From assembly GCA_963749655.1 (NCBI GenBank), contig CAVVOB010000020.1, positions 100,961-164,960 of the forward strand: a DNA stretch of 64,000 nt. The letters are read 5' to 3'. The translations under genes were made by a program, and so were the position numbers. This document shows, in pieces, positions 12,526-40,290 of the stretch (positions are counted from its first letter, which is position 1; each line of letters starts with the position of its first letter). The notes beneath the pieces are model-generated. The model saw only the letters and a program-made list of their open reading frames with translations, was not told the DNA's origin and ran no database searches. The DNA is from Nitrospirota bacterium (GTDB lineage Bacteria > Nitrospirota > UBA9217).

Positions 12526-12748
12526 CGGACCCCTCCCTGAAATGTGCCCGTTTGCGCAGTTCACTGCTCGCGTTCGAGCGAATCCCTTGTACGTGATGCA
12601 AACAGCCCGGAACCTGCCTCGTTTTATCCGCGCGCCCTCCGGTCTGCAACAGTTTCTGCAGTGCGGGTTTATTACTCTTTTTTGTCGTAAAACAATACCT
12701 ACTGCCGGTTATCGGAGTTTCGCTTCAAGGGCTCTTTAATAAATTTCA

Positions 12749-16021: not shown

Positions 16022-17518
16022 TTATGCTTTGCCGGCCGAGCCTTTCAAAAGCTGCTTCACCTGCCGGAGAAAAAGGTACAGCCACTTGAAAAAGGGCTTC
16101 AGGATGCCGCTGTTCAGAATATTCACGACCGGGAAGCTCACGAGAATTCTGAGCAGCGGACCGGGAATCTTCCCCTCTTTGGACAGCGTTATGAGCATGT
16201 TCAGGTAGTTCGGCTCCCGCATGGCGTAGCTTTTTGCATAGACTTCTTTTCTTTCGTCCTGGACTTTGCCGTCCCGCTTCGCCATCTCATGCAGTTTTGT
16301 TCCGGGATAGAGTACAAGCGCAAACGGCTGGAGATGAAAAGGCTTGGGGAACCGGGAAATCAATTTCAGGCTTTCGATCACGTCCTCGTCAGTTTCGTAG
16401 GGGACGTCGAGGATAAAGTCATAGCTCGGGGGAAGCATTTTATCGCGGTATTGATTGATGATGTGCACCGCCTTCAGGATCTTTTCGTTCGTCATTGACT
16501 TGCGGTTGAAGAGCTCCTGAATTTTGGGGCTGCCGGACTGGATCCCCATCTGGAGGTACATCATTCCCGCATCCACCAGCAGCGCCATCTTTTCCTCGTT
16601 CACCGTGAGCGGGCTTGCGAGGCAGCTGAACGGCAGTCCGATTTTTTCCTTGTACTCGCGGCAGAATTCCTTCAGGACCGTGATGTTGCGCGCGAAAAAA
16701 GCGTCGTCGGAGAGCCAGATGAAGCCCACAAAGGGCATGTTTTTCTTCACCCAGAGCAGTTCTTCCATGACGTGGTCCGTGCTCCGCCACCGAAGATAGC
16801 CCTGGCTGCCGTAAATGGTTTTAATCGCATCGTTAATGCAGTAGGTGCACTGATGGGGGCAGCCCCTGCCCGTCATCGTCTGGTACCCGATCTTGTGCAC
16901 GTAGCGCGAGAGGACGCCTCCCTCCATGAACTGCCGGGTCAGTTCCGCTGTTACGCGCTGGATGCGGCCGTCGATCAATGCGTACTGGTCCTCGAGGCTG
17001 TAATCGGGCAGGGGATAAGAATCCAGATTGGTATTCAGGGGCCTGACAGGATTTTTGATGATCCGTCCGTCCGCCCGCATCCATATATTCGCCGTCGAGG
17101 AATAATCTTTGCCGGCTGCCATTTTTTCAGCGAGTTCCAGCAGGGCCTCCTCGCCGTCGCCGACGCACACCAGATCGGCATGCTGCAGCGATTCCTCGGG
17201 ACGGATCGTGGGGTGCACGCCTCCCCAGATTACGGGTGTTTTGAGGTCCCGCTTGATCCGCTCGGTCACCTGAACGGCGCCGTCGAAAAAATTGGTCATC
17301 AAGGTTATGCCGATCAGGTCCGAGTCCCTGCAAAGGGAGACGGTCTCGTTCAGGATGTCATCCTGGTATCTCTTGACGCCGAAGTGAAGATTGTCGCCGA
17401 AAGGATCGGGCAGAAAAATCATCCTCGTCGTGTGCCCGTTTTTCTTCAGATATGAGGAAATAGTGCGCAGTCCGAAAGACGTCAGGTCGGGGTACAGCGA
17501 AATCAACGTTATCTTCAT
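16022..17518 (-). CDS. B12-binding radical SAM protein
   Basis: WGGVHPT...GDGE cobalamin-binding domain; GRGCPHQCTYC. Confidence 0.9.
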   Translation of the reverse strand: MKITLISLYPDLTSFGLRTISSYLKKNGHTTRMIFLPDPFGDNLHFGVKRYQDDILNETVSLCRDSDLIGITLMTNFFDGAVQVTERIKRDLKTPVIWGGVHPTIRPEESLQHADLVCVGDGEEALLELAEKMAAGKDYSSTANIWMRADGRIIKNPVRPLNTNLDSYPLPDYSLEDQYALIDGRIQRVTAELTRQFMEGGVLSRYVHKIGYQTMTGRGCPHQCTYCINDAIKTIYGSQGYLRWRSTDHVMEELLWVKKNMPFVGFIWLSDDAFFARNITVLKEFCREYKEKIGLPFSCLASPLTVNEEKMALLVDAGMMYLQMGIQSGSPKIQELFNRKSMTNEKILKAVHIINQYRDKMLPPSYDFILDVPYETDEDVIESLKLISRFPKPFHLQPFALVLYPGTKLHEMAKRDGKVQDERKEVYAKSYAMREPNYLNMLITLSKEGKIPGPLLRILVSFPVVNILNSGILKPFFKWLYLFLRQVKQLLKGSAGKA

Positions 17519-17567: not shown

Positions 17568-19271
17568 TTAAAGATAGCCTAAATTCTTCAGGTTATCCTC
17601 GATCTTCTTCTGTTCTTCCTCGGAATAGTCGATATTTTTTGCCTCCGCCGCAGACCGCTCAGCTTCCTTATGCTGAATGCCGTGGGAGCGGACGAAATCC
17701 TCGGAGATGATGGTCTGCAGAACTTTGCCGTCCGTTCCGGCAGGAATCGGCAGGCCCATCAGATAGAGAATGGACGGAGCCACATCGATGATCTCAGCCT
17801 CCGTTGTCACCGTATTTCTCCTGATTTGAGGACCGCTGACGATCAGCACGCCGTCATCAGAGTGCTCTCCCGACCACTGGACCCGCCCGAAGTCGATCGG
17901 GGGAATGGATACCGGTTTCCCCTGAAGATCGGTGCAGACAATTCCGCTGATCACGACGTCGTCCGCCCAATTGACGATCAGGTCGGGAGCGCGATCAACG
18001 TATTCTCCCTGGTAGACATCTTCACGCTTCAGCACTTCCTTGACGATCCTTTTCCCTGTTCTCGCATCCTTGCTTTCAAGGAGTTTTGCTATGATCTGAT
18101 CGCGTACCTGGTCGTACTCCCGGCCCGGCGGGACAGCCCCCTGTTTTTCCCTTCCTTGAAGATTGATCATCAGGTTCGGACCGGCCGTATATGCCTTTGT
18201 CTCGGGCCAGTCATAGGCAGCCAGCTGGGCGGCCGAGATGACTTCGAATCCGGATTTTTTCCAGTGGAGCACCTTTTTCAACAGCTGCCTGGTACGATAA
18301 CTGAGCAGCGAATACAACTTATCGGTGATGAGCTCCTTCAGCTTCGGGAGCGTGCGCGGCCGCGCTGGACGCCACGCCCGCCCGGGCGCATTTCCTTCGC
18401 CCCCGATCTTGGCGAAGCCGACCATCTGCAGCCATTGGGGAAGATAATTCGCACCGAGGGAGTTGGCCGTTGCTCCGTGGTCGGACATGATGACTATGGT
18501 CGCGTCCTCGCCGAGTGACCGGGTTATATCGCCGACTATGTCGTCGCATTTCCGGTATACATCGAGGATGGTAGCGCCGTACTTTTTCGCCTCAGCAGGG
18601 ACGTAGCCGGGGTGGTTTTTGTCGAGCAAATGCCAGAAGTGGTGCTGTGCCTCGTCGGTGGCCGTGAAAACGGTTACGAACAGGTCCCAGTCTTCCTTCT
18701 GGAGCAGATGCTTTGATACAGCCCATCGCACTTCAAGAACTCGGTGGATGTCCTGAATGACGCGCTCAGGCTCATTTCTCCGATATTTCTTAATGCTCGG
18801 CGTGAGCGGGTAGTGCTTGAATCGAGCGAGGATCTCCCGTATGAGCTGCGGGGGATGCGTGAAGCCCTCGCTCTCGGTCGACGGCGCGTCCCATCCTGCA
18901 ACCATGCAGCCGTTGACGTTATCGGCCGGGTAGGTGGAAGGAACGTTGATGACGCAGACCCTCTTGCCCGCCTTGCTGATTTGCATCCAAAAAGGCGCTT
19001 CCTTGCGGTGGGTGGCATTGATCATTTTCACCTTAAAGGTGGACGGGTCGATTGAAAAAAAGTGGTGAATGCCGTGCTTGCCCGGATTCATTCCCGTAGC
19101 AAAGGAAGTCCATGCCGCGGGACTGATCTTCTCGGGCGTTGATTTCAAAGCCCCGTAGCTTCCCCGCTCCATCAGCCGGGCGATGTTCGGCAGTTTGCCC
19201 TCTTTGACCCACGGCAAGATCAGGTCTAATGTGGCCCCATCAAGGCCGATAACAGCGACTTTGCGTTTCAA
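17568..19271 (-). CDS. Alkaline phosphatase superfamily (type I phosphodiesterase-like) protein
   Basis: IGLDGAT, SPAAWTSFATGMNPGKHG, TDEAQH, MSDHG, GEH, LKNLGYL. TTG start. Confidence 0.88.
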   Translation of the reverse strand: MKRKVAVIGLDGATLDLILPWVKEGKLPNIARLMERGSYGALKSTPEKISPAAWTSFATGMNPGKHGIHHFFSIDPSTFKVKMINATHRKEAPFWMQISKAGKRVCVINVPSTYPADNVNGCMVAGWDAPSTESEGFTHPPQLIREILARFKHYPLTPSIKKYRRNEPERVIQDIHRVLEVRWAVSKHLLQKEDWDLFVTVFTATDEAQHHFWHLLDKNHPGYVPAEAKKYGATILDVYRKCDDIVGDITRSLGEDATIVIMSDHGATANSLGANYLPQWLQMVGFAKIGGEGNAPGRAWRPARPRTLPKLKELITDKLYSLLSYRTRQLLKKVLHWKKSGFEVISAAQLAAYDWPETKAYTAGPNLMINLQGREKQGAVPPGREYDQVRDQIIAKLLESKDARTGKRIVKEVLKREDVYQGEYVDRAPDLIVNWADDVVISGIVCTDLQGKPVSIPPIDFGRVQWSGEHSDDGVLIVSGPQIRRNTVTTEAEIIDVAPSILYLMGLPIPAGTDGKVLQTIISEDFVRSHGIQHKEAERSAAEAKNIDYSEEEQKKIEDNLKNLGYL

Positions 19272-21880: not shown

Positions 21881-23275
21881 TTATGCATCATAGAAAGACT
21901 TCTTCTTTTTCAGCCTCCCGATAAAACGAAAGAACCCTTTCGCGCCGGGTTTGAGGATCTTCTCGACAACCGTGAGAACCACATCCATAACGACCGTGAT
22001 GTACCGCTGGGAAGGAGGATTGTAGAAGAGTTTCATTAATTCGGCTTCATTTTCCGCAAGCATGTCGGCTCGAGCATCCAGGAGCCCTTCTTCCTGGGCG
22101 GTCTTGAAAAGGGGAGTATGAGGCTCCAGGCGTATCCAGCCTATATCGCAGCCGCCTCTGCCCGGCATGAGAATGGGGATCGCAAAAAAGAGCTTGATGG
22201 TCCGGAGAAAGCCCCGAAAGTCCTGTCCGGGGTAACAGGCGAAAAAATTAAACCCCACGGCAACACCCTTGATCGTGCGTGCGATCTTTAAAGTCCTGTC
22301 GATGTCCTTGGACGTGATCCCCTTGCTCAGAGCGGCCAGGCCTTTGTCCGTTGTCGCATCCGGAGAGAATCCAAGATGGCGGCATCCCGCCTTCTTGAGC
22401 AAGGTCATAAATTCTTCCGAAAAATTTTTCATGCTGCACCATGCGCCCCACTCCACGGTCAGTTTTCTTCCGATGATTTCGTTGCAGATGTCGACGGCGT
22501 GTTTTTCCGGAATGTTGAATATGCTGTCGACAAACGTAAACGATTTGACGCCGTAATTGGCCATCAAATACTCGATTTCATCGACGACGTCCTTTGGCGA
22601 GCGGAGTCTTACCGTATTCTTGTTCAAAAAAGGGTAGCCGCAGTAGGTGCATTTATACACGCACCCGCGCTTGCTCTGGACCCCGATGATGTTATGCAAC
22701 GGGCCCACGTAATTTTTTATGTCGATGAGCGAGGCGTCGCGTCTCGGCATGGAAATCCTGCCAAAGTCAGGCGCCGGTCTCGGCCCGGTGAAGAAAACCT
22801 GTCCGTTCTTCCTGTAGAAGATGCCGCTGACTGCTTCAGGCGTGTTCAGGTTCCTGAGCAGCTCCGGCGCTGATTCATCGCCCTCCAGATAAACGCCGTA
22901 ATCAATGGAAGGCACTTTTTCCATGATCTGCTGCGCAAAGATCGAAAAACCGGTTCCGCCCGTCATTATTTTGATATTTGCATCTACGTCCTTGATGGTT
23001 TGAATGGTCTGCCTGACCGTTTTGAAGTAAACGAACGGATCTCTTCTTTGCGTCGTATCCATGTTGCGTATGGAGAGACCTGCCATGTCGGGACGAAAAG
23101 CCTGCACGACGCGCTTCAGCTCCTCGAAACATTGGGGGTAATCGTAAACACCGGGATCAAAAATTCTAACCTCGTGCTCCTTGAGGGCGGTCGCAATATA
23201 CGTGAGCCCGATGGGGAACAGGGGTTGTTTGATGACTCTTCTGCCCAATTCCTGCTGAACAAGTAATACCTTCAT
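21881..23275 (-). CDS. B12-binding radical SAM protein (lipid-associated type)
   Basis: FPIGLTYIA, GLSIRNMDT, KRGCVYKCTYC. Confidence 0.88.
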   Translation of the reverse strand: MKVLLVQQELGRRVIKQPLFPIGLTYIATALKEHEVRIFDPGVYDYPQCFEELKRVVQAFRPDMAGLSIRNMDTTQRRDPFVYFKTVRQTIQTIKDVDANIKIMTGGTGFSIFAQQIMEKVPSIDYGVYLEGDESAPELLRNLNTPEAVSGIFYRKNGQVFFTGPRPAPDFGRISMPRRDASLIDIKNYVGPLHNIIGVQSKRGCVYKCTYCGYPFLNKNTVRLRSPKDVVDEIEYLMANYGVKSFTFVDSIFNIPEKHAVDICNEIIGRKLTVEWGAWCSMKNFSEEFMTLLKKAGCRHLGFSPDATTDKGLAALSKGITSKDIDRTLKIARTIKGVAVGFNFFACYPGQDFRGFLRTIKLFFAIPILMPGRGGCDIGWIRLEPHTPLFKTAQEEGLLDARADMLAENEAELMKLFYNPPSQRYITVVMDVVLTVVEKILKPGAKGFFRFIGRLKKKKSFYDA

Positions 23276-23492: not shown

Positions 23493-24233
23493 TCAGTGCC
23501 CATCAGTGCAATTTACCAGCTTCGACGGAACAGAGAAGACCAGATCTACCGCCTTTGCATTTCCGATCGTTTTTTCCAGGTACACAAAGGCATCGGGCAA
23601 TAATGTCCTTAGTTCACCTTTCCGGTGAATATCGCTTGCCACGATATGGCAAAGCCCCGCCTTTATCAGTGCTATCGCCGATGACCTGACCTTTCTTCCA
23701 TATTTACCTAAAAGGCTGCCGGCGTTGATCTGTAGCATTCCTCCATTGTTCGCAAAATCCTTCGCCATCCGGTGATCCTTGGAAATTTCGAAACACCTTT
23801 CAGGGTGGGCCCATATCGGTGTAATGCCCCGGGCCATAAGGCTGAATAAGACATCAGAGGTGTACATCGGCATCTCATAAGAAGGTATTTCTATCAGCAC
23901 GTGGCTTCCCTTGCCGTTTATCGTCAGGCTTGTATCACCCCGTATAAACTGAGGCAGATCCGGCGCCAGCATAAGCTCGGCGCCGAGGTGAAGAACTATA
24001 TCAATCCCTTTTTGCGCCGCTTTTTCCTTGAATGCTTCGAATGCAGACACCCTTTTTCCCCGATCGGACCCGTAGGGGGAAAAATGCGGCGTTAAAATAA
24101 TTTCCTTCGTTCCGATCTCTGCAGCCTCTTCCAGGATGTGCAAGGCCTCGTCGACATCTCTCGCCCCATCATCAATACCGGGCAGAATGTGCGTGTGGAT
24201 ATCAATAAAATTTACCGACTGCAGCGACGCCAT
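23493..24233 (-). CDS. CpsB/YwqE-type PHP tyrosine-protein phosphatase
   Basis: IDIHTHILPGIDDGA, LTPH, AHPER, ASDIH. Confidence 0.92.
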   Translation of the reverse strand: MASLQSVNFIDIHTHILPGIDDGARDVDEALHILEEAAEIGTKEIILTPHFSPYGSDRGKRVSAFEAFKEKAAQKGIDIVLHLGAELMLAPDLPQFIRGDTSLTINGKGSHVLIEIPSYEMPMYTSDVLFSLMARGITPIWAHPERCFEISKDHRMAKDFANNGGMLQINAGSLLGKYGRKVRSSAIALIKAGLCHIVASDIHRKGELRTLLPDAFVYLEKTIGNAKAVDLVFSVPSKLVNCTDGH

Positions 24234-24242
24234 AGCCCGAGC

Positions 24243-26284
24243 TCATTTGGTGTGATAATAGTAGTAATAGGCGCTTAGGCGCCGGTGCACTCTGTTCAAA
24301 ACGACCCCGGTCAAGTTGACGCTTGCCCGTTTGAATGAATCGATGATGTCGGCGACATTACTCGTGACCGCCCTGCCGCTTTGAGTCAGCAAGATGATTC
24401 CGTCCGTCCATCCGCCGAGGACGAGAGCATCGCTGGCAGCCAGCACGGGAGGCGTGTCTACTACCACCAAGTCGTACATCGTCTCCATTTCCTTAATCAG
24501 GTTGTGCATCTTGTTCGATTCGACGAGCTTTCCCGGATCCGGCGGTATCGGCCCCGTCAGTATCACGTAAAGACCGTCGACGTCCGTCTTGAGCTGAATG
24601 TCTTTCAACTCCGCATCGCCGACCATGTAGTTGGTGAGGCCGAGATCATTCGGCTGCTTGAAATATTTGTTGATGGCGGGCCTTCTCAGGTCCCCGTCGA
24701 TGAGCAGTACCTTTTTGCCTTCGCTCGCCACCGAGATCGCGAGATTTGAAGCAAAAAAGCTTTTCCCTCCTGCTCCATAGAGCTTGTTACTGCCATGCTT
24801 TTTAACGTCTTGTCCAGTGCGGTGTATTTGATGCTGTTGCGGATGGTTCTGACCTGCTCCCGGAGAGGGGAGCGGTGGTCCGCCATGCTGATCAGCCGCT
24901 GCTCTTTCTTGCTCAGATTGAAAATGCTGCCCAGGAAGATCACTCCCTTGAACGCTTTGATGTCTTCGGACGTCTTTATCGTATTGTCCAGGTGCTCGAT
25001 AATAAGGGCCGACCCTATACCGAGGAATCCCCCGATGAACAGGGAAAGTATGAAATTTTTGGAAAGAGAAGGGCTTCTGTGGTCCGTATCGTTTTTGTCG
25101 TATGCAACGGCGGGCTCCGCTATATAAATGTTGGCGACCGCTATTGATTCCGCGATTCCGATCTGATAGAGCGCCTTGGACAGCGAATTATAAATATCCT
25201 GATTCACCGACACCGCGAGATTGAGCTGTGCATAGTCGTAGCTCTTTTGCGGCAGACCCGTTATGGGCAAATCGCTGCTGTCGCTTTTCATCTGGTCAGC
25301 TGACCTATCAGGGGCCGCAGCCGGGTCTGCGGGGTTGGACGTCATTTTTTCGGTCAGATCGCGCAGGCCCGGATCACTGCTCATTCTCTCGGCGCCGAAG
25401 ACTTTTTCCATCTTTTGCTGAATCCGAAGCTTCGTTTCCTCGATCTTGTTTTGCAGGTCTATGACGGTGGGATGATCTTTGCTGTATTTCGTCTTCGTGT
25501 CCGCCAACAAGAGGTACAGATCCCTCTGTGATTGTTTGAGATCGGATATCTGCTTGATATACTCCGATGTTTCATAATCCAGGTTCACCGTCTTCTTATT
25601 CTCTTTGAAGTGCTTCAGCGCCAGCAATGCCTCGTGGTACTCGTTCTTGTATCTTTTTAGATTGTTGGCGACATAAACTTTTGCATCTGAGAAATCTTCG
25701 CGGATTCTTTTGAGCTCCGCCTCCACAAATGCATCGGCCATGGCGTTCGCGATCACGCTCGCTTCTTTAGGATCCGTCGAACGTCCTTCGAAGGTTATGA
25801 GGTCAGTGCTTTGAAATTGATCCGTCAGTATGGCAGGACGGGGGAAAATATAGGCGGAAATGGGCCATTGGACAAAATCGTCGGGTTTGATCGGAACAGG
25901 GTCCGTTGATACGTTGACCCCCAGAGCGCCGAAGACCGGTTTCAGAAAGGGGAGCGCCCTGAAAATTCTGGCCCTCGTTTTTACCCGGGATAGATGCAAT
26001 TGTGATACTACTTTTTCCGCAATCGGCCGGACCGTAGTGAGCGCCAGATAGTCGGATCTGTCCGTATCGGAGAGGGACGAAGCCGATCCCGTGCTGGACA
26101 TCCCCAGACTGGCAAGGACGGTGCCTGATACCCAGGACCTTCTCAGAAACACCTTGGCGCTCGCATTATGCCAGGGTGTAATGAGGGCTGTCGTCACCAT
26201 GATCACTAGCAGATAGGCGGAGAAAATCGAAAGAATGATCATCTTTCTTCTCCACAAGATTCCCAGTATCGTCTTTAACTCCAC
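24243..26284 (-). CDS. wzc: Wzc co-polymerase/tyrosine autokinase (one A missing in a homopolymer near 24763)
   Basis: Wzz N-terminus. Restoring one A gives Walker A EQEGKSFFASNLA, joining to IDGDLRRP, VDTPP and the C-terminal YYYYY cluster. Confidence 0.9.
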
Positions 26285-27196: not shown

Positions 27197-28357
27197 TCAT
27201 CTTATTTCAATAAGGATTTTTGCGTCTTTTCTATCCGACGACCGGGCGAACCCCTTCCTGATCTCCGAGAAGGGAAAGACGGTCGTGACCATCTCCCTTG
27301 CGGCATCGAGTCTACCGCCCTGCAGCAGGCGAATGATCTGGGAGTAGATGCCGTAGCCGGAATGCCCCCGGGATCCGATAATTGCATGAGCCCCTGACAC
27401 GACACGGTTAAGGTCCACGTGCGCCGAAGCATCCACGCGGCCGAGATAGATGATTTTGCCACGCCGGGAACAGAGCTGCTGCAACAAGGGGATCGTCTTA
27501 TGGGCTGCTCCGGCGGCTTCCACCTGAATGTCGGCGCCCCACCCGCCGGTTATGTTCATGACGGCTTCCACGAGGTCGCTGGTCCCGTTCGCATTGAACA
27601 CGAAGTCAGCGCCCAGTTTCTTCGCGAGAAGCAGTCTTTCTTCGACTACGTCGACGGCGATGATCTTTGAAGCGCCTGCGGTCTTGAGGAGCATGACCGC
27701 ACCCAGTCCGATCGGACCGGCGCCGTAAACGATTGCGCAAGCGCCGGGCAGGAATCCTTCGCCGGCAATGAAAATGCCATTATAGGCGCAGCCGATCGGC
27801 TCGATCAGGGTCCCGATCCGGAGCACATCGTTATGACCGAATCGCTCCGTGAGGCCGTTCAGCTTCCAGCAATAGGCCGCCTTGACGGCTATATATTCGG
27901 CGAATGCGCCATCAGAGGTCAGGCCCATCAGTTCGACATTCTCGCACTGGTTCAGCATGCCGCTCCGGCAGGGGAGGCATTTTCCGCACCACATGATGCT
28001 CTCGCTCGTGACGATGTCTCCCTTGGCAAAGCCGACGACGTCCTTGCCGACCTCCACGATCTCGCCGGAGAACTCATGCCCGAGAATGCTCGGAAGTTTT
28101 GTCGGTCCGGAAAAAATGATGTAGCCGTCGCCGTCGGTTTCGTAGGTGTGGGTATCGGAGCCGCAGATGCCGCAGGCCGCGACGCGGATCAGCACCTGGT
28201 CGTTCCCGACGGAGGGAACCGGCACGTCGCGGATTTCCAGGCGGGGATTGCGCCAAACCTGGCTCCCCACGACGGCATGCCTGCTTTTCTGTTCTTTTTC
28301 CGAAAGACGGTATTCTTTTTTCGGTTCCCAGTCGGCTTCCGCCACAAGTGCCTTCAT
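27197..28357 (-). CDS. iolM: Zn-dependent dehydrogenase, scyllo-inosose 3-dehydrogenase (IolM)-like
   Basis: CGICGSD, GHEFSG, structural Zn cysteines, plus the IolM-type N-terminus (W.P......GSQVWRNP) and GSRGHSG. Similarity recalled, not searched. Confidence 0.72.
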   Translation of the reverse strand: MKALVAEADWEPKKEYRLSEKEQKSRHAVVGSQVWRNPRLEIRDVPVPSVGNDQVLIRVAACGICGSDTHTYETDGDGYIIFSGPTKLPSILGHEFSGEIVEVGKDVVGFAKGDIVTSESIMWCGKCLPCRSGMLNQCENVELMGLTSDGAFAEYIAVKAAYCWKLNGLTERFGHNDVLRIGTLIEPIGCAYNGIFIAGEGFLPGACAIVYGAGPIGLGAVMLLKTAGASKIIAVDVVEERLLLAKKLGADFVFNANGTSDLVEAVMNITGGWGADIQVEAAGAAHKTIPLLQQLCSRRGKIIYLGRVDASAHVDLNRVVSGAHAIIGSRGHSGYGIYSQIIRLLQGGRLDAAREMVTTVFPFSEIRKGFARSSDRKDAKILIEIR

Positions 28358-29862
28358 GCATGCTCCAGTTGCAGTGCTTTTTTGTTGATCTTTCCACTCC
28401 CGATCTTCGGCAGCGCATTCCGCAACTCCACGATGCGGGGAGCCTTGTAGTGGGCCAGCCGGTCCCGGCAGAAATCATGAACCGCCTTTTCGGTGAGGAC
28501 CGCCCCTTCCTTCGCAACAACGATCGCTTTGGGAACTTCGCCCCGCAGCCGGTCCTTGACGGAGATAACGGCGGCCTCCTTGATATCCGGATGATCGAGC
28601 AGCACCTGTTCAATCTCGAGGGGGAACACCTTCAGGCCGGCAACCTTCATCATGCCCCGTTTGCGCTCGACAAAAAAGAAATTTCCTTCTGCGTCACGCC
28701 TCGCGAGGTCTCCGCTGTAGTACCAGCCGTCACGGCAGACGGCGGCGGTGCTTTCTTCATCCCGGTAATATTCCTGAATGACGGCGGGCCCCCTGAAGAT
28801 CATCTCGCCGACCTCTCCCTGCGGCAGTTCTTTCCCGTCCTCGTCCACGATCTTGACTTCGTAGGTCGAACAGGGACGGCCTGCCGAACAGGGAACGATG
28901 TCGGTCCCCGGCCGGTTCGCCAGGGCGATCCCCGTTGTTTCCGTGCTGCCCCAGACGGGCACGATCGGCACGCCGAGTTTCTTCTGAAACCGCTCGATCA
29001 GGTCAAGGCGGGTAAACATGCCGCCGCTCTCGGGTATGCGCAAAGAATGCATATTATATACTTTATGTTCAAGTACTTCAATAAGATTCTCGTACATCGG
29101 CGCCAGTCCCATCATGCAGGTGACGCCGTTGTCCGCGATCGCCTGAGCAAGGGACTTGGGGTAGACATTGTCCAGCATCACCATGGTCCCGCAGAGAAGC
29201 AGAGGGCGGGCGAATATTTCGTGCGGGTGAGCGAAGGGAGCGAACATGCAGAGATGGACATCATCGGCGGTCATGCCGAGAGCTTCGGCGGCAGCAAACG
29301 TATTCCAGTATATATGGGCGTGGGTGGTTACCGCCCCTTTAGAATTCCCGGTGGATCCCGATGTGTAGTTCAGATAGGCGACGTCATCGATGCGGATGTC
29401 CAGGGAGGGGTTGAGCGGACTGCTCTTTTCCATTATGTCCTGCAGGGAGTGCCAGCCGGGCTCGGTCGTCTTTCCGGCAACGATGCAGGAGACGGAGGAT
29501 GTGGAGGAAATGCAGCTCCTGGCCAGGGTCGCAAACTGCTCCGCCACGATGAAGAACCGGGGCGTCGTGCGGTCAAGAACGCATTGTATTGCATCGACCG
29601 GAAGCTCGAAATTGAGCGGGACGATGATGCCTCCCGCCTTGGCAGCGGCAAGAAAACCGATGACCAGTTCGGGGACGCGCAGCATCATCAGGCCGACCCG
29701 GTCGCCTTTTTTCAGCCCCTGCTGGAGCATGCCGTTCGCAAGCCTGTTCACGGCTTCGTTGAGCTGCCGGTAGGTCAGCTTCCGGTCATGATACACAATG
29801 GCGGTTTTGTCCGGAAACTCGGAAGCATTGCGTTCGAGCTGTGCGCCCAGTGTCGTCCCCAT
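28354..29862 (-). CDS. Long-chain acyl-CoA ligase / AMP-binding enzyme
   Basis: YTSGSTGNSKG, WGSTE, SGDLA, LPKIGSGKI. Start MGTTL. Confidence 0.9.
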   Translation of the reverse strand: MGTTLGAQLERNASEFPDKTAIVYHDRKLTYRQLNEAVNRLANGMLQQGLKKGDRVGLMMLRVPELVIGFLAAAKAGGIIVPLNFELPVDAIQCVLDRTTPRFFIVAEQFATLARSCISSTSSVSCIVAGKTTEPGWHSLQDIMEKSSPLNPSLDIRIDDVAYLNYTSGSTGNSKGAVTTHAHIYWNTFAAAEALGMTADDVHLCMFAPFAHPHEIFARPLLLCGTMVMLDNVYPKSLAQAIADNGVTCMMGLAPMYENLIEVLEHKVYNMHSLRIPESGGMFTRLDLIERFQKKLGVPIVPVWGSTETTGIALANRPGTDIVPCSAGRPCSTYEVKIVDEDGKELPQGEVGEMIFRGPAVIQEYYRDEESTAAVCRDGWYYSGDLARRDAEGNFFFVERKRGMMKVAGLKVFPLEIEQVLLDHPDIKEAAVISVKDRLRGEVPKAIVVAKEGAVLTEKAVHDFCRDRLAHYKAPRIVELRNALPKIGSGKINKKALQLEHA

Positions 29863-30060
29863 GGTTCCCCCAGGATGGTCCCGCGCGTCGTTTTGCCTGC
29901 GGGCACTCATCGGCTTCTGCGGTTGTGTCGAGAAAGGTACTCTGTGAGCTGGAATGCTGCTGTGTGTGGCAGGCTGCTTCAAGGGAATACTGCCCGGCGC
30001 CGTGCAGAAGGAGGAAACGCACAGCCGACCGTGACACTCACCAGTAAGTCGTTACCACCG

Positions 30061-31818
30061 TTAATAGGCACCCGCCTTTTTTAAAACTACTTTGATCGTT
30101 TTGAACAGAATCTTCAAATCCAGCCACAGCGACTGATTCAGCACATAATGAATGTCATACCGTATCCAATCATGGAAATGCGCTTCGCTCCGTCCGCTGA
30201 CCTGCCAGAGCCCCGTCATGCCCGGTTTCACCCGCAGCCGGGTATCGCGCCAGCTGGGGCTGCATTTCATCTCATCCATAACGAGGGGACGGGGGCCGAC
30301 CAGGCTCATCTCTCCCCGCAGGACATTGAAGAGCTGAGGGAGCTCATCGAGGCTGGTGCGGCGCAGAAACGCGCCGATCCGGGTGATCCGCGGATCGTTC
30401 GCGAGCTTGAACATGGGGCCGTCGACATCCTTTTGCGCCGCCAGCTGCTGCTGATATTTCTCGGCGTCCCGCACCATGGTCCTGAACTTGAGCATGTCGA
30501 AGTCATTTCCGCCTCTGCCGCTGCGTTTCTGCCGGAACAGGACGGGGCCGGGCGAGTCCAGTTTGATAGCAAGCGCGATGAAAGCGAGAAGCGGCAGAAT
30601 GACGGCGATGCCGAAGGCGGAGGCCGCGATGTCCGTCAGCCGCTTGATCGTGAGGAAAAGGGGGCGCTTCTGACCGTTCAGTGCGGACGGGTTCAGGGCG
30701 GTAATGCCTTGGAATGCCTGGTCCGAAGCCATGAGGCTCGCGTCTTCGGCATCGGCATCGTCTACGATGACGGTGTTGGAGAAGGACTCCCCCGAGGTGA
30801 CGCGCAGTCCCTGTTCCACGATGCAGTACTGCACCCGGGAGTTTCTTTCCGCGACCGTATTGTCCCACAGGATGCTTTCCCGCACGAACGCCCCCCGCGC
30901 TACCTGACACCCGTTGCCGATAACCGCCGGACCGATGATCTGCGCGTCCCGCTCTATGACGGCATCGTTGCCGATGACCACCGGTCCGAGAATGTATGCG
31001 CGGGGAGAAACAACTGCATTGGTCCCGGTCCATACGCCGTCGGCGATCATGGTTCCATTGTCAGCCGTGGCCGTGAGGCCGGGATTCAGGAGAAGGGTGC
31101 GGTGGAGATCGAAATAGTCCTTGACCGAATAGAGCGATTTGCAGAATTGCTTGGCCTCGTAGGCGTACACGGGGAGTGATGCCTTGCGGAGGGCCGGCAC
31201 GAGCTGTTCCTTGATGTCGAAATAGGAGCGGGAATCGATGTAATCAAGGGCGCGGGGGCTGAATACGTATATTCCGAGGGACTCGATGGAGGACCGCCTG
31301 CGCGACGTGTGTATCCGTATGATGTCCTCGATCATTCCGTCCTCGGAGCACCGGATTCCTTCGAGCGAGAATTGATGTGTTCGTCTGACGACAATAGTAA
31401 GGACGGCTTTCTTCTTGACGTGAAAATCCAGGACGTCGTCGAGGTCGATGTTTCCCAGGAAAGAGTTGCCGCTGACCACGAGGAAGGGCTCGTCGCCGAT
31501 CTGCTCGCGGAAGTCGCGGAGAACGCCCGCGGTTCCCCGCGGCCTGTCATCCTCCATGTACCGTAAATGTTGAGAGCTGATCGCGTCCGAAAAAAAATTC
31601 CTGTACAGGTGGCTGTGGGTCCCCTGCGAACCGGCGATGATGATATCCGTCATGCCGCTGTTGTTCAGCCGCGAGATGGTATGCTCGATCAACGGCTTGT
31701 TGAGGATCGGCACCATCGAGGCGGGCAGATATTTGGTAAGGGGTGTGAGCGACGTGCCTTGCCCGCCGGCGAGCACTACGGATTTGGATACTTTGATTCC
31801 TGAAATGACGGAAACCAT
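30061..31818 (-). CDS. Fusion of degenerate sugar-1-P nucleotidyltransferase, LbH domain and priming phosphoglycosyl transferase
   Basis: LAGGQGT N-terminus, hexapeptide repeats, C-terminal KRLTDI, KFRTM, LDELPQLFNVLRGEMSLVGPRP, KPGMTG. Confidence 0.9.
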   Translation of the reverse strand: MVSVISGIKVSKSVVLAGGQGTSLTPLTKYLPASMVPILNKPLIEHTISRLNNSGMTDIIIAGSQGTHSHLYRNFFSDAISSQHLRYMEDDRPRGTAGVLRDFREQIGDEPFLVVSGNSFLGNIDLDDVLDFHVKKKAVLTIVVRRTHQFSLEGIRCSEDGMIEDIIRIHTSRRRSSIESLGIYVFSPRALDYIDSRSYFDIKEQLVPALRKASLPVYAYEAKQFCKSLYSVKDYFDLHRTLLLNPGLTATADNGTMIADGVWTGTNAVVSPRAYILGPVVIGNDAVIERDAQIIGPAVIGNGCQVARGAFVRESILWDNTVAERNSRVQYCIVEQGLRVTSGESFSNTVIVDDADAEDASLMASDQAFQGITALNPSALNGQKRPLFLTIKRLTDIAASAFGIAVILPLLAFIALAIKLDSPGPVLFRQKRSGRGGNDFDMLKFRTMVRDAEKYQQQLAAQKDVDGPMFKLANDPRITRIGAFLRRTSLDELPQLFNVLRGEMSLVGPRPLVMDEMKCSPSWRDTRLRVKPGMTGLWQVSGRSEAHFHDWIRYDIHYVLNQSLWLDLKILFKTIKVVLKKAGAY

Positions 31819-32141
31819 AATGCCGTGAGCCTTTCTCAGGTACAGGGAAAAAGTCCGTCGCTGTTGTTTAAATCATGATGAGCAGCATTAAAAAAGTTCT
31901 GTTCCTGATGCAGAAGGGCCTGATTGAAGCCCTGAAACCATTCCTCTGTTTTTAGATCAATACAAGCTTACGCCAATACCCCAATACATTGTCCGGAGTT
32001 TTACTCGGAAATAGCGGTATTGATGATCGGACGGCATGATAATACTTTATGACAGGTAATATTTGTAATTCATTGAAAAAATACATTTGTTTTCGTAACC
32101 TATTGGTTCTATTGCTGCTTTTCAGTAAATGCGAGGTGAGC

Positions 32142-32170
32142 ATTATAAAAGATAGAAAAAATGATGTCAA
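32142..32170 (-). promoter_or_regulatory. Consensus sigma70 promoter for the polysaccharide operon
   Basis: Minus strand reads TTGACA-N17-TATAAT. Confidence 0.75.
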
Positions 32171-32189
32171 CAAGTTAATGCCTGTAAAC

Positions 32190-32207
32190 GGGGTATTTTT
32201 AGGGTAT
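32190..32207 (-). promoter_or_regulatory. Shared 18-bp operator-like motif, copy 1
   Basis: ATACCCTAAAAATACCCC, also at 37700 and 54326. Confidence 0.7.
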
Positions 32208-32543
32208 AGAGGGCGTGTAAAACATGCGATCGGCTCCTGCGCGATGCCCTTCGTCCGGCGGGAATTGCGGAGGGAAAACTCCGCAAAGGAATGAGGATCT
32301 TGTTGAAAGCTGTTCTGCAGGTTGTTCATAAGGACAGTATAGTAACAAAGATCGCTGAATGTAAAGGTACTATTCACGTTGCGCAGGGGGAAAATCCCGG
32401 GTCTTAAGGAATCTTGTCGGCAAAAGTGCATTTTTCTTAAGCTCCGAAGCTTCATTGTTTCTTAACTATGGAAAGTTATCGTACGCAAGAACCGCTTTCG
32501 CTTCTCACAGGGCTTTGTCCGAGGGCGCATCGGAAAACAGAAG

Positions 32544-32570
32544 AGCCGGCATTTCAGCGCATGCCGGCTT
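32544..32570 (-). terminator. Hairpin downstream of lpxC
   Basis: AGCCGGCAT-N8-ATGCCGGCT followed by a T-rich tract on the minus strand. Confidence 0.5.
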
Positions 32571-32600
32571 CAGCAGAGGATCTTTGTCGGAGGGCCGGAA

Positions 32601-33509
32601 TTACAGTGCGGCATGCTGGTACTGAATCTCTCCGGGAAGCGCCTTCGTCCTGCCCGACGCATTGACCAGAACCCAGTCGCGGGGGCTGCTCAGGAGTTTG
32701 CCGACCATCTGCGCATTCAGACCGTGGCCGGATTTGTGGGCGACGATATGGCCGATGATCGGCATGCCGGCAAGCGAAAGGTCGCCGATGAGGTCCAGTA
32801 TTTTGTGCCGTACAAACTCATCCTGGTATCGCAGGCCTTCCTTGTTTACCACCGTTTCCCTGTCGAGGGCCACGGCATTGTCCAGGGATGCCCCCTTGGC
32901 CAGGCCGTTTTCCTGGAGCGTCCTGACTTCGCTCAGAAATCCGAAGGTCCGGGCGTCGGAGATGTCGCGAAGGAAGGCTTCCTCGGACTGCCGATACTGC
33001 AGGCTTTGCTCCTTCAGCATGGGGTGGTTGAAATCGATGAAGCAGGAAATGCAGGTCGTTTCTGCGGGCCAGATCGCGAGCTGTTTGCCGCCCTCCCGCA
33101 CAAAGACGGGCCGCAGGACCTTGAGCAGCGGCCTGGGTTTGTCCTGGATCTCGATGCCGGCCTCGGCGATGAGCCGTACAAAAATCCGCGCGCTGCCGTC
33201 CATGATCGGGAGCTCTTCGGCGTCGATCTCGATAAAGAGGTTGTCGATAGTAAGACCCGCAAGGGCGGAGAGCAGGTGTTCCACGGTCTTCACCGAAACT
33301 CCGCTCCTGCACAGGGTTGTGGCATAGCTTGTTGCCGAAGTGTTCGCAGCCGCCGCCTTGATCGCTGCGTTGCCGCGGTCGGTGCGGATGAAGGTGATGC
33401 CCGCGCCCGCACGAGCCGGCCTGAGCGTCATCTGAACGGGCATGCCTGAATGAAGTCCGATGCCTTCGCAGGTGATTGGTTTTTTTATGGTCCGTTGATA
33501 ACTGGTCAT
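32601..33509 (-). CDS. lpxC: UDP-3-O-acyl-N-acetylglucosamine deacetylase
   Basis: QRTI...GIGLHSG, TVEHLLSAL, ELPIMDGS, ARTFGF, HKILDLIGDL, KSGH. AGAAAGGA RBS before the ATG at 33509. Confidence 0.96.
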   Translation of the reverse strand: MTSYQRTIKKPITCEGIGLHSGMPVQMTLRPARAGAGITFIRTDRGNAAIKAAAANTSATSYATTLCRSGVSVKTVEHLLSALAGLTIDNLFIEIDAEELPIMDGSARIFVRLIAEAGIEIQDKPRPLLKVLRPVFVREGGKQLAIWPAETTCISCFIDFNHPMLKEQSLQYRQSEEAFLRDISDARTFGFLSEVRTLQENGLAKGASLDNAVALDRETVVNKEGLRYQDEFVRHKILDLIGDLSLAGMPIIGHIVAHKSGHGLNAQMVGKLLSSPRDWVLVNASGRTKALPGEIQYQHAAL

Positions 33510-37943: not shown

Positions 37944-38948
37944 CTAAAATCGATCTTTAAGAGCATCTATGCCCCAGAAACTTCCTAACACGGGAACGCT
38001 ACCAACCTGCAGCTTGTTTTGGATTAGATTTGGAATTGAATCTATGATAATGCCAGTTAATAATCCGCTACAGGTGAAGACAGGTCCACCAAGGTTGCAG
38101 ATGTTACTAGAGCAGGGTGTCATGGCATAGCGATCAACAGTGGGTGGCTCTGATCGAATAAAATGGGAGACAATTGAGGCTGCGAATGCATAATCATGCA
38201 TAGCATAAATCCTCTCGCCCGCATCTGTACCAAACAAGTATCCCAGTTGCTGGCCAATGAAGGGCGTTCCTGCAACACGCTTGATCTTAGAGGTATCGGG
38301 CTCGGTCCGTTCTAGTTCATACCTGGCAGATATTTCTGGATCTGGAGAGCGGAGGTTTTTTAAACTTTCTGCTTCAAGAAAAACAACATCACCCCATTCA
38401 TATGTGGTTCTAACATTGAAGCCTAAGCATTCATGCCCGATAAGCAACGATGCTCTGCCGCCCGGAATTTTGGTATTAAGAATGCCTATTTTATCAATTA
38501 CCTTTTTTGCAGTTAGCAAAGTTCGTTCATCAATGAATGTTGCATATCCAGCTTGATAAAATTTAGTTTTGCCATGGTATTTATAGAAATAGTAGATTGG
38601 CCAACATCGTTTACTATATTTGCTGAAAGAAGGCGCAAACAACATGTCAGAATCAGGTTGAGGAACAACTTGTTCAACGTGATTGGATTTGTAAATAAGT
38701 GTAATTCGTCTTTTCCAGTCGATTATCGAGCTTTGCTTTATCAAGCCTCTATGATATTTTGCGTGACAGTAAGGACAAAGTGGCAAAAGATTCTCCGGGT
38801 CATTGCCACCACCTTTATGCACTTCAACAATGTGATGAACGTCGATCGTCAATTCATTAGGACACGATGGGCAGGCACACCTGTACCCCGCTTCGGTCAG
38901 GACTACATCTCTTTGCTCACCGCTCAGTTCTGTTTGTGCCTTTTTCAT
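37944..38948 (-). CDS. HNH endonuclease fused to a degenerate trypsin-like domain
   Basis: CACPSC...DVHHI...GGNDPENLLPLCPYCH; C-terminal LLTAKKV and NLGGPVF...GLLTGII. AT-rich. Confidence 0.75.
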   Translation of the reverse strand: MKKAQTELSGEQRDVVLTEAGYRCACPSCPNELTIDVHHIVEVHKGGGNDPENLLPLCPYCHAKYHRGLIKQSSIIDWKRRITLIYKSNHVEQVVPQPDSDMLFAPSFSKYSKRCWPIYYFYKYHGKTKFYQAGYATFIDERTLLTAKKVIDKIGILNTKIPGGRASLLIGHECLGFNVRTTYEWGDVVFLEAESLKNLRSPDPEISARYELERTEPDTSKIKRVAGTPFIGQQLGYLFGTDAGERIYAMHDYAFAASIVSHFIRSEPPTVDRYAMTPCSSNICNLGGPVFTCSGLLTGIIIDSIPNLIQNKLQVGSVPVLGSFWGIDALKDRF

Positions 38949-38959
38949 TATTCATATTC

Positions 38960-39025
38960 CTGCTAATGACCTCGCGGGTGAGACGCGCGTCTTTTGCGCG
39001 TCGGACTCGACCCGCTCGTTGGTTT
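38960..39025 (-). mobile_element. attC-like integron cassette site
   Basis: CCAAC-GAGCGGGT-CGAG..GACGCGC/GCGCGTC..CTC-ACCCGC palindrome right after a stop codon; degenerate R' end (GTCATTA). Confidence 0.65.
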
Positions 39026-39029
39026 CAAT

Positions 39030-39389
39030 TTACTTCGTTCTTGTGATTTGCTTTGTCTTTGGATTCAGTTGGAATAGCCGACCACGCTCATCTCTAATTG
39101 ACAGGTTGCCCTTGTCGCATTGAATTTTTTCAATAAACACCCACTGGACATCTTTTTCGAGGCCGGGCTGGATTGTATTCGTAAAGATGGTTATTTCGGA
39201 TATCTTCTTCTTTGTTTTGGTATCCCAAACCTCTACGTACTCTCGAATGCCGTCGTTGTTAGGGGTAATAAATTTCATGCCTTCGCATATGGAAGGCTCA
39301 ACAATAGGAGCGCCACCTCGTTTTGACCAAGCTATATTGGTAATCATCACGAGGAAAAGTACAAGGTAAATTGATAATCTAATCTTCAT
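39030..39389 (-). CDS. Small exported hypothetical cassette protein
   Basis: Signal peptide, YVEVWD and LEKDVQWVFI motif, followed by attC. Confidence 0.7.
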   Translation of the reverse strand: MKIRLSIYLVLFLVMITNIAWSKRGGAPIVEPSICEGMKFITPNNDGIREYVEVWDTKTKKKISEITIFTNTIQPGLEKDVQWVFIEKIQCDKGNLSIRDERGRLFQLNPKTKQITRTK

Positions 39390-39410
39390 AAATATCGCCA
39401 CACAGAAATC

Positions 39411-39792
39411 TCACGGCTGCTCGGGTGCGTGATTTGTTATCTTTTCTCTTCGCTTTCGTATCGTGAAGCCAACAACAATACTGATTAATACCAGAAGCGC
39501 GAGTAAATAGCCGCTGAGCACATAGAATTTTCCTGCCTCTATTGCAATGTCTCGACCAACGTAAGGGTCGCGAAGCTCATTTATTAAGCCATAAAAGTAA
39601 AACGCAGAAATTGTACCAGTTAGCATATAGAAGGCGCGGTTTATATCGCGCAGATAAAAAGCATAAAACAGCACCTGATATACCCCAAATAAAATTCATA
39701 AGTAATGAGGGTTCCTTATCCATTACTTCGGCATAGGCGGGACTACACCATGAAAGGAGCGCGACAAATATATAGAGGCTAAGCATTCTCAT
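39411..39792 (-). CDS. Membrane hypothetical cassette protein, indel near 39630
   Basis: Signal peptide AYAEVMDKEPS plus TM helices over two frames. GTTAG upstream and a TAACAAATC attC remnant at the 3' end. Confidence 0.6.
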
Positions 39793-40290
39793 ATTTTTCG
39801 AAACTAACAATATATTATAGGGACGGCCTACAGTATCATATAAAATACGAATTCGTCAATATGCATTGGGAAAATCCTGACTCAACCTGCGGGAATCATT
39901 ACAGTCGCAAAAAAGACGAATATTACAAATCGGACAAGTCCATAATTATTGAAATAATATTCAAAACGAACAATTCTCTGCTGATTGACGCGTCTGCTCC
40001 ATATACTGAAGCCTTTCAGCGATCTTATGGAAGCGCGGTCCATTCCATGTTCTCTTCGTGCGACTACCGCAAGTGGATCATGTATTACCTCGATTTCCGC
40101 GTGAAATATCCTCCGCTGGATTCACGATCCAAACGACCCGGCCGTCAGTTCGAAAAAGCGGCTGCAACAGTGACAGAAAACTCCTTCCACCAGCCGGATT
40201 TTTTGCATCATTAAAAAAATAATTCACCTGTTCTCACTTCTGCAAATCATTATGCTGATCCCTTTTGTGGAAATTCAACGTGTTATGTTT

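Follow-up and report, generated by a model that had tools for sequence, protein, structure and literature searches.

The phosphoglycosyl transferase (PGT) step commits scarce undecaprenyl phosphate together with nucleotide sugars to one polymer, and its post-translational control in Wzx/Wzy pathways is only now being worked out, the tyrosine phosphorylation of CapM being one case. The present study concerns a gene in which a nucleotidyltransferase (NTase)-fold domain and a left-handed beta-helix (LbH) are fused to a monotopic PGT. It occupies positions 30061-31818 of the minus strand in a 64,000-nucleotide stretch of DNA from a Nitrospirota bacterium (assembly GCA_963749655.1, contig CAVVOB010000020.1, positions 100,961 to 164,960), hereafter called the window, whose numbering is used throughout. 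With regard to its catalytic domain, the closest described systems are the large monotopic PGTs WbaP, EpsZ and WcaJ (PDB 8t53, 9s7s). Passages of PMC10942596 describe WbaP as a functional homodimer whose N-terminal module, a DUF (domain whose function is unknown), senses uridine monophosphate (UMP) with a half-maximal inhibitory concentration (IC50) of 4.1 uM, and passages of PMC12802240 report that EpsW~P activates EpsZ through promoting its dimer. Since EpsZ needs such a dimer-promoting activator, the PGT step is, as far as those passages go, regulated via quaternary structure.

Like the large PGTs, the fusion is predicted to prime a Wzx/Wzy pathway and bears a non-catalytic module at its N-terminus. 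Unlike theirs, however, this module (hereafter the N-domain) is soluble and of an unrelated fold, namely a dead NTase followed by the LbH. The DUF of the large PGTs (PF13727) was not found in the fusion at E-values up to 0.1, and the four-helix membrane bundle is absent, as the protein has one hydrophobic segment only.

The same two-domain fold as in the N-domain is present in GMPPA/KONJAC (PDB 7d72_A, 8yre_A), GlgD and eIF2B gamma/epsilon, which were recovered by sequence as well as structure searches and which share with the fusion that catalysis was lost while the domain was kept under selection. According to passages of PMC9168903, GMPPA is an inactive regulatory subunit, and GMPPA/KJC regulate a sugar-nucleotide step. 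An earlier note, made from the DNA letters alone, had drawn an analogy to these proteins, which would be one of function only, as GMPPA-type proteins are free subunits that pair with and act on an active paralogue, whereas the partner of the dead domain in the fusion is a covalently attached, unrelated membrane enzyme. The loss in the fusion is also more radical, with every phosphate and metal ligand gone. A close NTase+LbH (GMPPB-like) paralogue of the N-domain was not found by tblastn in its own genome, the assembly of which is 86.6% complete; the best other hits reached at most 66 bits (GlgC being 24% identical), and the other nucleotidyltransferases of this genome are RmlA-, GalU-, GlgC-, GlmU- and MurU-like. 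The genome also encodes a 665-amino-acid (aa) fusion (contig C30, locus L007, positions 205-2202) whose N-terminal nucleotidyltransferase motifs are intact (AAGLGERM...LPKPLLPI) and whose long C-terminal part resembles a kinase on visual inspection, as in MurU/AmgK, and which provides an in-genome contrast to the dead domain.

Two further groups have to be considered. Bifunctional monotopic PGTs (monoPGTs), termed Bi-PGTs and attributed to O'Toole et al. 2021 in passages of PMC10942596, resemble the fusion in that a functional-looking pathway domain is joined to a monoPGT core. Since the fused domain appears to be a pseudoenzyme, the present protein would however not be bifunctional and hence not a Bi-PGT. 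Active NTases of the GMPPB/VTC1/tlr0611 type (PDB 7x8k, 7d72_K, 8x7s) show the same fold and domain order and have the PxGTAG loop, G182-x-Y184 and D234-Y235 in common with the fusion, which in contrast to them is without the catalytic Arg, Lys, two Asp and Glu-Lys. By homology, the fusion is a monoPGT joined to an NTase-superfamily domain, yet it falls outside four categories, namely active NTase, large PGT, true bifunctional PGT and GMPPA-type subunit. In its mode of action, it would come closest to the accessory domains that regulate large PGTs on the one hand and to pseudo-NTase regulators such as GMPPA on the other, but placed in cis on an unrelated enzyme. A full-text literature search, which did not cover the 2021 network analysis of monoPGT fusions, found no published description of an NTase-PGT fusion.

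The gene is a single uninterrupted reading frame of 585 codons (stop codon at 30061-30063), all features of which lie on the minus strand, and alignments with homologues of 585-587 aa span 100% of the query. The NTase-fold domain comprises residues 12-240 (31099-31785), of which residues 12-219 match PF00483 (NTP_transferase; 86.7 bits against a cut-off of 21.2, E 2.3e-24). It is followed by the LbH (residues 245-352; 30763-31086), in which Pfam places LbH/Hexapep repeats at residues 262-352 and in which W263, P279, G296, P297, R313 and E314 are invariant, by a poorly conserved linker of low model confidence (residues 353-388; 30655-30762), in which the predicted local distance difference test score (pLDDT) is 46-70, and by the catalytic PGT domain (residues 389-585; 30064-30654). 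Mean conservation rises from 0.358 in the linker to 0.525 in the NTase domain and 0.749 in the PGT domain. In Foldseek searches, the N-terminal 350-370 residues matched tlr0611 (8x7s), plant VTC1 (7x8j/7x8k), human GMPPB/GMPPA (7d72) and ADP-glucose pyrophosphorylases with E-values from 1e-19 to 3.5e-26, the top matches being 8x7s (E 3.5e-26), 7x8j and 7d72 (down to E 1e-22), and a look-up in the ESM Atlas returned generic GMPPB-like clusters only. An AlphaFold2 model made from 97 homologues has a mean pLDDT of 84.3 and a predicted template-modelling score (pTM) of 0.65, and in stretches of at least three residues pLDDT falls below 50 at residues 1-5, 360-367 and 376-382.

The PGT half is intact. 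Residues 392-580 match PF02397 (Bac_transf) over profile positions 1-179 of 179 with 233.7 bits (cut-off 27, E 1.3e-69), and the NCBIfam model TIGR03025 (exopolysaccharide polyprenyl glycosylphosphotransferase) scores 302 bits against its cut-off of 295.55, in a match that uses the C-terminal catalytic half only. WbaP aligns with this half at 180 bits and is near-identical to it over RTSLDELPQLFNVL and GEMSLVGPRP, the region of the Asp-Glu dyad. The earlier note had called the PGT motifs DELPQ (residues 491-495) and GPRP (residues 508-511) intact, and this is borne out by the invariance of K392, D396, P409, D491, E492 and G508-P-R-P511 across 97 sequences. The pair D491-E492 is presumably the catalytic dyad of monotopic PGTs. 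The only hydrophobic segment of the protein (residues 396-417) lies within a long helix of the AlphaFold2 model (residues 379-421), with K392-R393 just before it and the invariant P409 inside it, and is a candidate for the re-entrant helix. Profile and motifs together place the C-terminal domain, as far as can be predicted, in the monotopic PGT superfamily, and the protein is predicted to act as the phosphoglycosyl transferase that primes an exopolysaccharide pathway of the Wzx/Wzy type.

The N-domain, in contrast, matches the fold and profile of NTases without their catalytic residues. As HMMER alignments with solved active enzymes (8x7s, 7whr, VTC1 in 7x8j/8yre and GMPPB in 7d72) set the strings quoted in the earlier note opposite the canonical motifs, the substitutions listed there are real. 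GGQGTSL (residues 18-24) aligns with G-x-G-T-R-L, so that Ser23 stands in place of Arg in the degenerate G-loop AGGQGTSL (residues 17-24; 31747-31770); LPA (residues 31-33, within LPAS) aligns with P-K-P, with Ala33 for Lys; VSGNS (residues 115-119) aligns with G-D/S-D, with Asn118 (31465-31467) for the first metal-binding Asp; and CKSLY (residues 226-230) aligns with W-x-D-I-G, with Ser228 for Asp. A further loss, absent from that list, is the E-K-P motif, which is replaced by R168-I169-H170 and in the region of which a family-specific basic loop, H170-T-S-R-R-R-S176, is found (31291-31311). Altogether, six of the six catalytic positions checked are substituted in this protein, i.e. the triphosphate/pyrophosphate (PPi)-binding Arg and Lys, the two metal-binding Asp, and the Glu and Lys of E-K-P. 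The contacts of VTC1 that are listed in passages of PMC9168903 can be mapped in the same way: those to PPi (Gly9, Thr12, Arg13 and Lys23) correspond to G19, T22, S23 and A33, those to guanine (residue 80 and Gly85) to D90 and G95, and those to mannose (Gly146 and Asn173) to G154 and S180, whereas the catalytically critical Asp111, Glu195-Lys196 and Asp219 correspond to N118, K203-E204 and S228. These comparisons with solved active enzymes agree with the earlier note in that the N-domain is predicted to be a pseudo-nucleotidyltransferase that can no longer make nucleotide sugars.

A true bifunctional enzyme, in which the N-domain still makes a nucleoside diphosphate (NDP)-sugar and channels it to the PGT, is suggested by the architecture as such and by source annotations. 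Members of the family are named 'sugar transferase' or 'polyprenyl glycosylphosphotransferase' or carry strings such as 'glycosyltransferase/ADP-glucose pyrophosphorylase', so that the names either give the transferase only or imply a working pyrophosphorylase half. Given the substitution of all six positions, and the distribution of these residues among relatives described below, we consider a bifunctional enzyme scarcely credible.

Among 120 proteins obtained by a word-index search (43-100% identity to the query, query included), PF00483 and PF02397 were both found in all 120 listed. The named source organisms are Deltaproteobacteria/Thermodesulfobacteriota, Desulfatiglandales, Nitrospirae/Nitrospirota, Candidatus Schekmanbacteria and Candidatus Polarisedimenticolia. 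In a MAFFT alignment of this set, position 118 is Asn in 81, Ser in 31 and Asp in 1, Lys is found at position 33 in 7 and Arg at position 23 in 23 sequences, and at position 228 Asp does not rank among the six most frequent residues. When 1.84 billion cluster representatives were searched exhaustively by phmmer, with the N-domain on its own as query, 428 proteins were obtained at E-values up to 1e-30, the best 150 of which were classified together with the query using hidden Markov models built from this fusion family. The full set of six catalytic residues was present in none of the 63 PGT-fused representatives, of which 25 kept none, 35 one and 3 two; by position, R23 was kept in 4, K33 in 32, D118 in 3, E168 in 1, K169 in 0 and D228 in 1. 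Of the 88 representatives without a PGT, on the other hand, 71 have all six residues, 3 have five and 14 are degenerate. Those with five or six are canonical enzymes of 330-400 aa or fusions of about 800 aa to a phosphohexomutase-like domain, and the nearest active relatives score best with a mannose-1-phosphate guanylyltransferase model, yet below its cut-off. In 11 of the 14 unfused degenerate proteins the termini were inspected, and 7 of these look like fragments, since they break off within the LbH or where the PGT helix starts; the termini of the other four (P0123, P0136, P0186 and P0206) are ambiguous, and the three outside the inspected set (P0164, P0179 and P0244) are 242-265 aa long.

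A FastTree phylogeny of 149 N-domains (two rows with less than 70% coverage removed) has one branch, with a support of 1.0, that parts 74 canonical from 75 degenerate tips. Midpoint rooting was rejected as uninformative because the root fell inside the fast-evolving fused group, and the tree is hence read as an unrooted split. The check proposed in the earlier note, an alignment of homologous fusions, came out as expected there with regard to the loss, and we conclude that catalytic loss is a trait of the fusion family and not a local accident.

In spite of this loss, the dead domain does not appear to drift. The ratio of non-synonymous to synonymous substitution rates (dN/dS), calculated by the Nei-Gojobori method for one pair of the same genus (G215 and G209, 93% identical, with an unsaturated dS of 0.23-0.35), is 0.060 for the NTase domain, compared to 0.289 for the LbH, 0.103 for the linker and 0.142 for the PGT domain, which suggests that the NTase domain is under strong purifying selection. 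The 15 invariant residues of the N-domain across 97 sequences comprise, besides the six in the LbH named above, G95, A97, G98, D201, E204, Q205, L206, P208 and Y235. For a finer view, segments of equal length within residues 8-240 were ranked by conservation across 58 homologues (drawn from the 120, below 70% identity and with complete N-termini), where a rank of n of N means that n of N segments score at least as high and a small n hence denotes high conservation. The most conserved segment of ten residues is Y199-F-D-I-K-E-Q-L-V-P208 (31195-31224; rank 1 of 224). It aligns with the eta6-alpha6 loop of VTC1, which carries the catalytic Glu195-Lys196 according to the passages cited, in the reversed order K203-E204. 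The base-binding loop E-D-D-R-P-R-G-T-A-G (residues 89-98; 31525-31554), which by the above mapping contains the counterparts of VTC1 residue 80 and Gly85, is retained as well (rank 16 of 224), with G95, A97 and G98 among the invariant residues and an acidic residue at position 90 in 108 of 120 sequences. Conservation averages 0.635 over the four former ligand loops taken together, compared to 0.50 for the remainder (p 0.0017 in a one-sided Mann-Whitney test).

We also considered a guanine-specific pocket, which was rejected: the UTP-using tlr0611 likewise has Asp at position 90, so that base specificity cannot be read from this position.

The cleft would thus seem to have decayed in its PPi- and metal-binding half, while the base side and the sugar-phosphate side appear to have been rebuilt, with charged residues that are both new and conserved. 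To judge from its conservation pattern, such a rebuilt cleft fits a non-catalytic ligand site, and a protein interface as well. Of the earlier note's expectation that the pocket is kept, the part concerning the base loop and the loop at residues 199-208 holds, whereas it fails for the G-loop, the PK and WxD sites and the mannose contacts.

From our point of view, the N-domain is most likely a built-in sensor or assembly module and not a second enzyme. We tentatively favour, at a little under an even chance, that it is a non-catalytic module which tunes the PGT through a nucleotide or nucleotide sugar bound in the rebuilt cleft, and which probably also oligomerises via the beta-helix. According to this proposal, the N-terminal two thirds of the protein would be a cytoplasmic pseudoenzyme derived from a hexose-1-phosphate nucleotidyltransferase with its beta-helix, in which the old substrate cleft was partly kept and remodelled, with the base-binding loop, the invariant YxDIKEQLxP loop and the new His/Ser/Arg-Arg loop as its elements. 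The N-domain could respond to a nucleotide or nucleotide sugar by adjusting the activity of the PGT tethered to it by the flexible linker, while the beta-helix would probably hold the fusion enzyme in an oligomer. As such, the NTase-LbH module may stand in for the four-helix bundle and the nucleotide-sensing DUF of large PGTs such as WbaP. The idea of an NDP-sugar sensor, as put forward in the earlier note, is compatible with the remodelled and selected pocket, although a scaffold for oligomerisation, which is weighed below, remains a live rival to it. A stricter version, which we regard as possible but doubtful, is that the cleft (acidic position 90, PRGTAG, E153, H-x-S-x-x-R-R and YxDIKEQLxP) serves as a dedicated receptor, through which a nucleotide signal allosterically switches the fused PGT; candidate signals would be the donor NDP-sugar, a GDP-sugar further down the pathway, the nucleoside monophosphate product or second messengers, e.g. 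c-di-GMP or ppGpp.

Several observations weigh against a ligand-binding module. The G-loop at residues 17-24, which would wrap the phosphates, is variable, with 'DAEWKPER'-type replacements in some members, and is conserved below the domain average (rank 149 of 226), as are the PK site at residues 31-35 (192 of 229) and the WxD site at residues 224-230 (157 of 227). The beta8-beta9 loop (residues 150-156, rank 202 of 227) and the beta10-beta11 loop (residues 166-181, rank 119 of 218) are, as whole segments, only average, and what stands out in them are single residues, namely E153 (in 114 of 120 sequences), H170 (104), S172 (111), R174 (90) and R175 (101). The equivalents of the mannose contacts of VTC1 are unconserved, with G154 in 44 and S180 in 40 of 120. 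With a pTM of 0.65 and a linker of low confidence, the model has no fixed packing between the two halves. The dN/dS values stem from a single pair, since in a second pair, which includes the gene of the window itself, dS is saturated, and the classified sample consists of the best hits to a degenerate query, so that active NTase-PGT fusions elsewhere would be compatible with it. The conserved loops, lastly, could equally be explained by a protein-protein or inter-domain interface.

The latter point leads to a pure scaffold, in which the NTase-LbH part binds no small molecule but oligomerises the PGT or docks Wzc, Wzx or glycosyltransferases, and in this way replaces the dimerising module of the large PGTs. 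Besides the decay of the G-loop, the PK and WxD sites and the sugar-contact positions, it draws on passages of PMC9168903 according to which GMPases and AGPase dimerise and are regulated through the LbH and VTC1, GMPPB and TmGMP dimerise through it, on the homodimeric WbaP and the help that EpsZ needs for dimerisation (passages of PMC10942596 and PMC12802240), and on eIF2B gamma/epsilon as structural relatives with the same fold. However, constraint peaks in what were once active-site loops of the NTase and not in the LbH (dN/dS 0.06 versus 0.29, with residues 199-208 at the top of 224 segments), and the conserved charged residues E153, H170, R174, R175, D201, K203 and E204 reside in former ligand loops, where they could still form an interface. 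A homodimer prediction for two copies of residues 8-372 scored 0.25 against a mark of 0.42, which is evidence neither way. Overall, we deem a pure scaffold rather unlikely.

It can further be imagined that the dead domain binds the NDP-sugar donor of the PGT so as to enrich it locally or pass it on to the active site of the PGT, without any regulatory switching. Such substrate capture would be in line with the retained base-binding loop and its acidic position 90, and with the covalent tether to the PGT through a flexible linker of about 35 residues. However, the ancestral sugar and phosphate contacts have been replaced, and a confident inter-domain packing is not seen in the model. PGT donors are moreover usually UDP-sugars, whereas the nearest active relatives of the N-domain score best with the guanylyltransferase model mentioned above, if below its cut-off. 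We consider this explanation improbable, and even more so a new enzymatic activity, in which the remodelled cleft (E153, H170, S172, R174, R175, D201, K203, E204 and Q205) would catalyse another reaction on a nucleotide, sugar phosphate or lipid-linked product. The His, Ser, acidic and basic residues that are conserved as a set in former active-site loops, together with the strong purifying selection, might be read in this way, but a known catalytic motif was not recognised in Pfam and NCBIfam scans, the metal-binding Asp residues are all gone, and the pattern suits a binding site equally well, which makes a neo-enzyme very improbable.

The clade comprises at least 63 clusters at 50% identity. 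If the preferred sensor or assembly module is correct, the exchange of the usual N-terminal module for a selected dead sugar-nucleotide enzyme in this clade would be a third solution to the control of the PGT step and a clear-cut example from bacteria of a pseudoenzyme that regulates in cis. Should the dedicated receptor prove true, it would represent a previously undescribed class of built-in pseudoenzyme sensors at the committed, undecaprenyl-phosphate-consuming step of Wzx/Wzy pathways in several phyla of uncultured bacteria. As the soluble N-domain should express easily, the question could be addressed directly through ligand screening.

The genomic context agrees with a function in polysaccharide synthesis. 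Downstream on the same (minus) strand, positions 2104-29982 encode an AMP-dependent ligase, a zinc-dependent alcohol dehydrogenase, a Wza-like exporter, a Wzc-like GNVR protein, an AAA_31 kinase, a CpsB phosphatase, B12-binding radical SAM enzymes, Wzx, Wzy, a carbamoyltransferase, an SGNH protein, acyltransferases and glycosyltransferases of families GT9 and GT2. Upstream, also on the minus strand, a perfect sigma-70 consensus promoter (TTGACA-17-TATAAT, 12/12) lies at 32142-32170, about 320 nucleotides (nt) before the start codon, and a terminator-like hairpin at 32544-32569, 3' of the upstream lpxC, parts this gene from the polysaccharide operon. Because of the gene content downstream and the promoter and hairpin at its 5' side, the fusion is taken to be the first gene of a Wzx/Wzy polysaccharide operon. 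The genome of the window contains three other PGT genes.

Between promoter and start codon, a leader of about 320 nt (31819-32170, minus strand) is present. The leader and the region upstream (31700-32700) gave no Rfam match at E-values up to 1 and hence no known riboswitch. Pfam gave no hit for a 167-codon open reading frame (ORF) located there (31952-32455), which is unlikely to be a gene.

In a sample of 401 genomes of the phylum, searched at E-values up to 1e-40, the N-domain was found in 16, including that of the window, but not in any of the 14 further genomes of the genus, and the frame around it was always open over 585-669 aa. Annotation covered 12 of the 15 related loci (in the remaining ones, L040-L042, the fused gene was missed by ORF calling). 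Within 7 kb of the fusion, an exporter (Wza) and/or a Wzc-type gene is encoded in 10 of these 12, an AMP-ligase in four (L029, L030, L032 and L036), the pair of ligase and zinc-dependent dehydrogenase in three, and an apparently ordinary NTP_transferase gene in one. In the window, this ligase and dehydrogenase follow directly downstream of the fusion (27197-29982, minus strand), and in L029 the AMP-ligase is fused to a radical-SAM/SPASM domain; the recurrence of the two genes suggests that the polymer is modified by acylation or in some other unusual way. In several relatives (L033, L034 and L036), the fusion is adjoined by genes of the PAPS-reductase and type I phosphodiesterase families, and their pathways may yield sulfated or phospho-modified polymers. 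L036 further contains a gene with an EF-Tu-type GTPase domain, and in L035 a PEP-CTERM protein is encoded directly upstream.

Within the cluster of the window, the chain-length/kinase module is split in the style of Gram-positive CpsC/CpsD (23493-26284, minus strand): the GNVR protein (24686-26284) and a separate, short AAA_31 kinase (24243-24731) are encoded with an overlap of 46 nt. A CpsB/CapC phosphatase of the PHP type comes after the kinase, and LpxC as well as a Wza-like exporter of the outer membrane are likewise encoded in the genome. The cluster further contains three B12-binding radical SAM enzymes at 3105-4806, 16022-17518 and 21881-23275 (minus strand), the first as two overlapping ORFs (B12-binding at 3880-4806, Radical_SAM at 3105-4061), which may reflect a frameshift or an assembly error. 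That the polymer is heavily decorated is suggested by two homologues of lipid-A-biosynthesis-type acyltransferases (PF03279; 7850-8851 and 20759-21403, minus strand), together with the carbamoyltransferase (9616-11436), the SGNH protein, which is AlgX-like (11476-12564), and a member of the type I phosphodiesterase family (17568-19271). Outside the cluster, a stretch of low GC content at 37944-40000 (0.419 at 38001-40000 versus about 0.56 around it) carries an HNH-endonuclease ORF (37944-38948) and may be foreign or mobile DNA.

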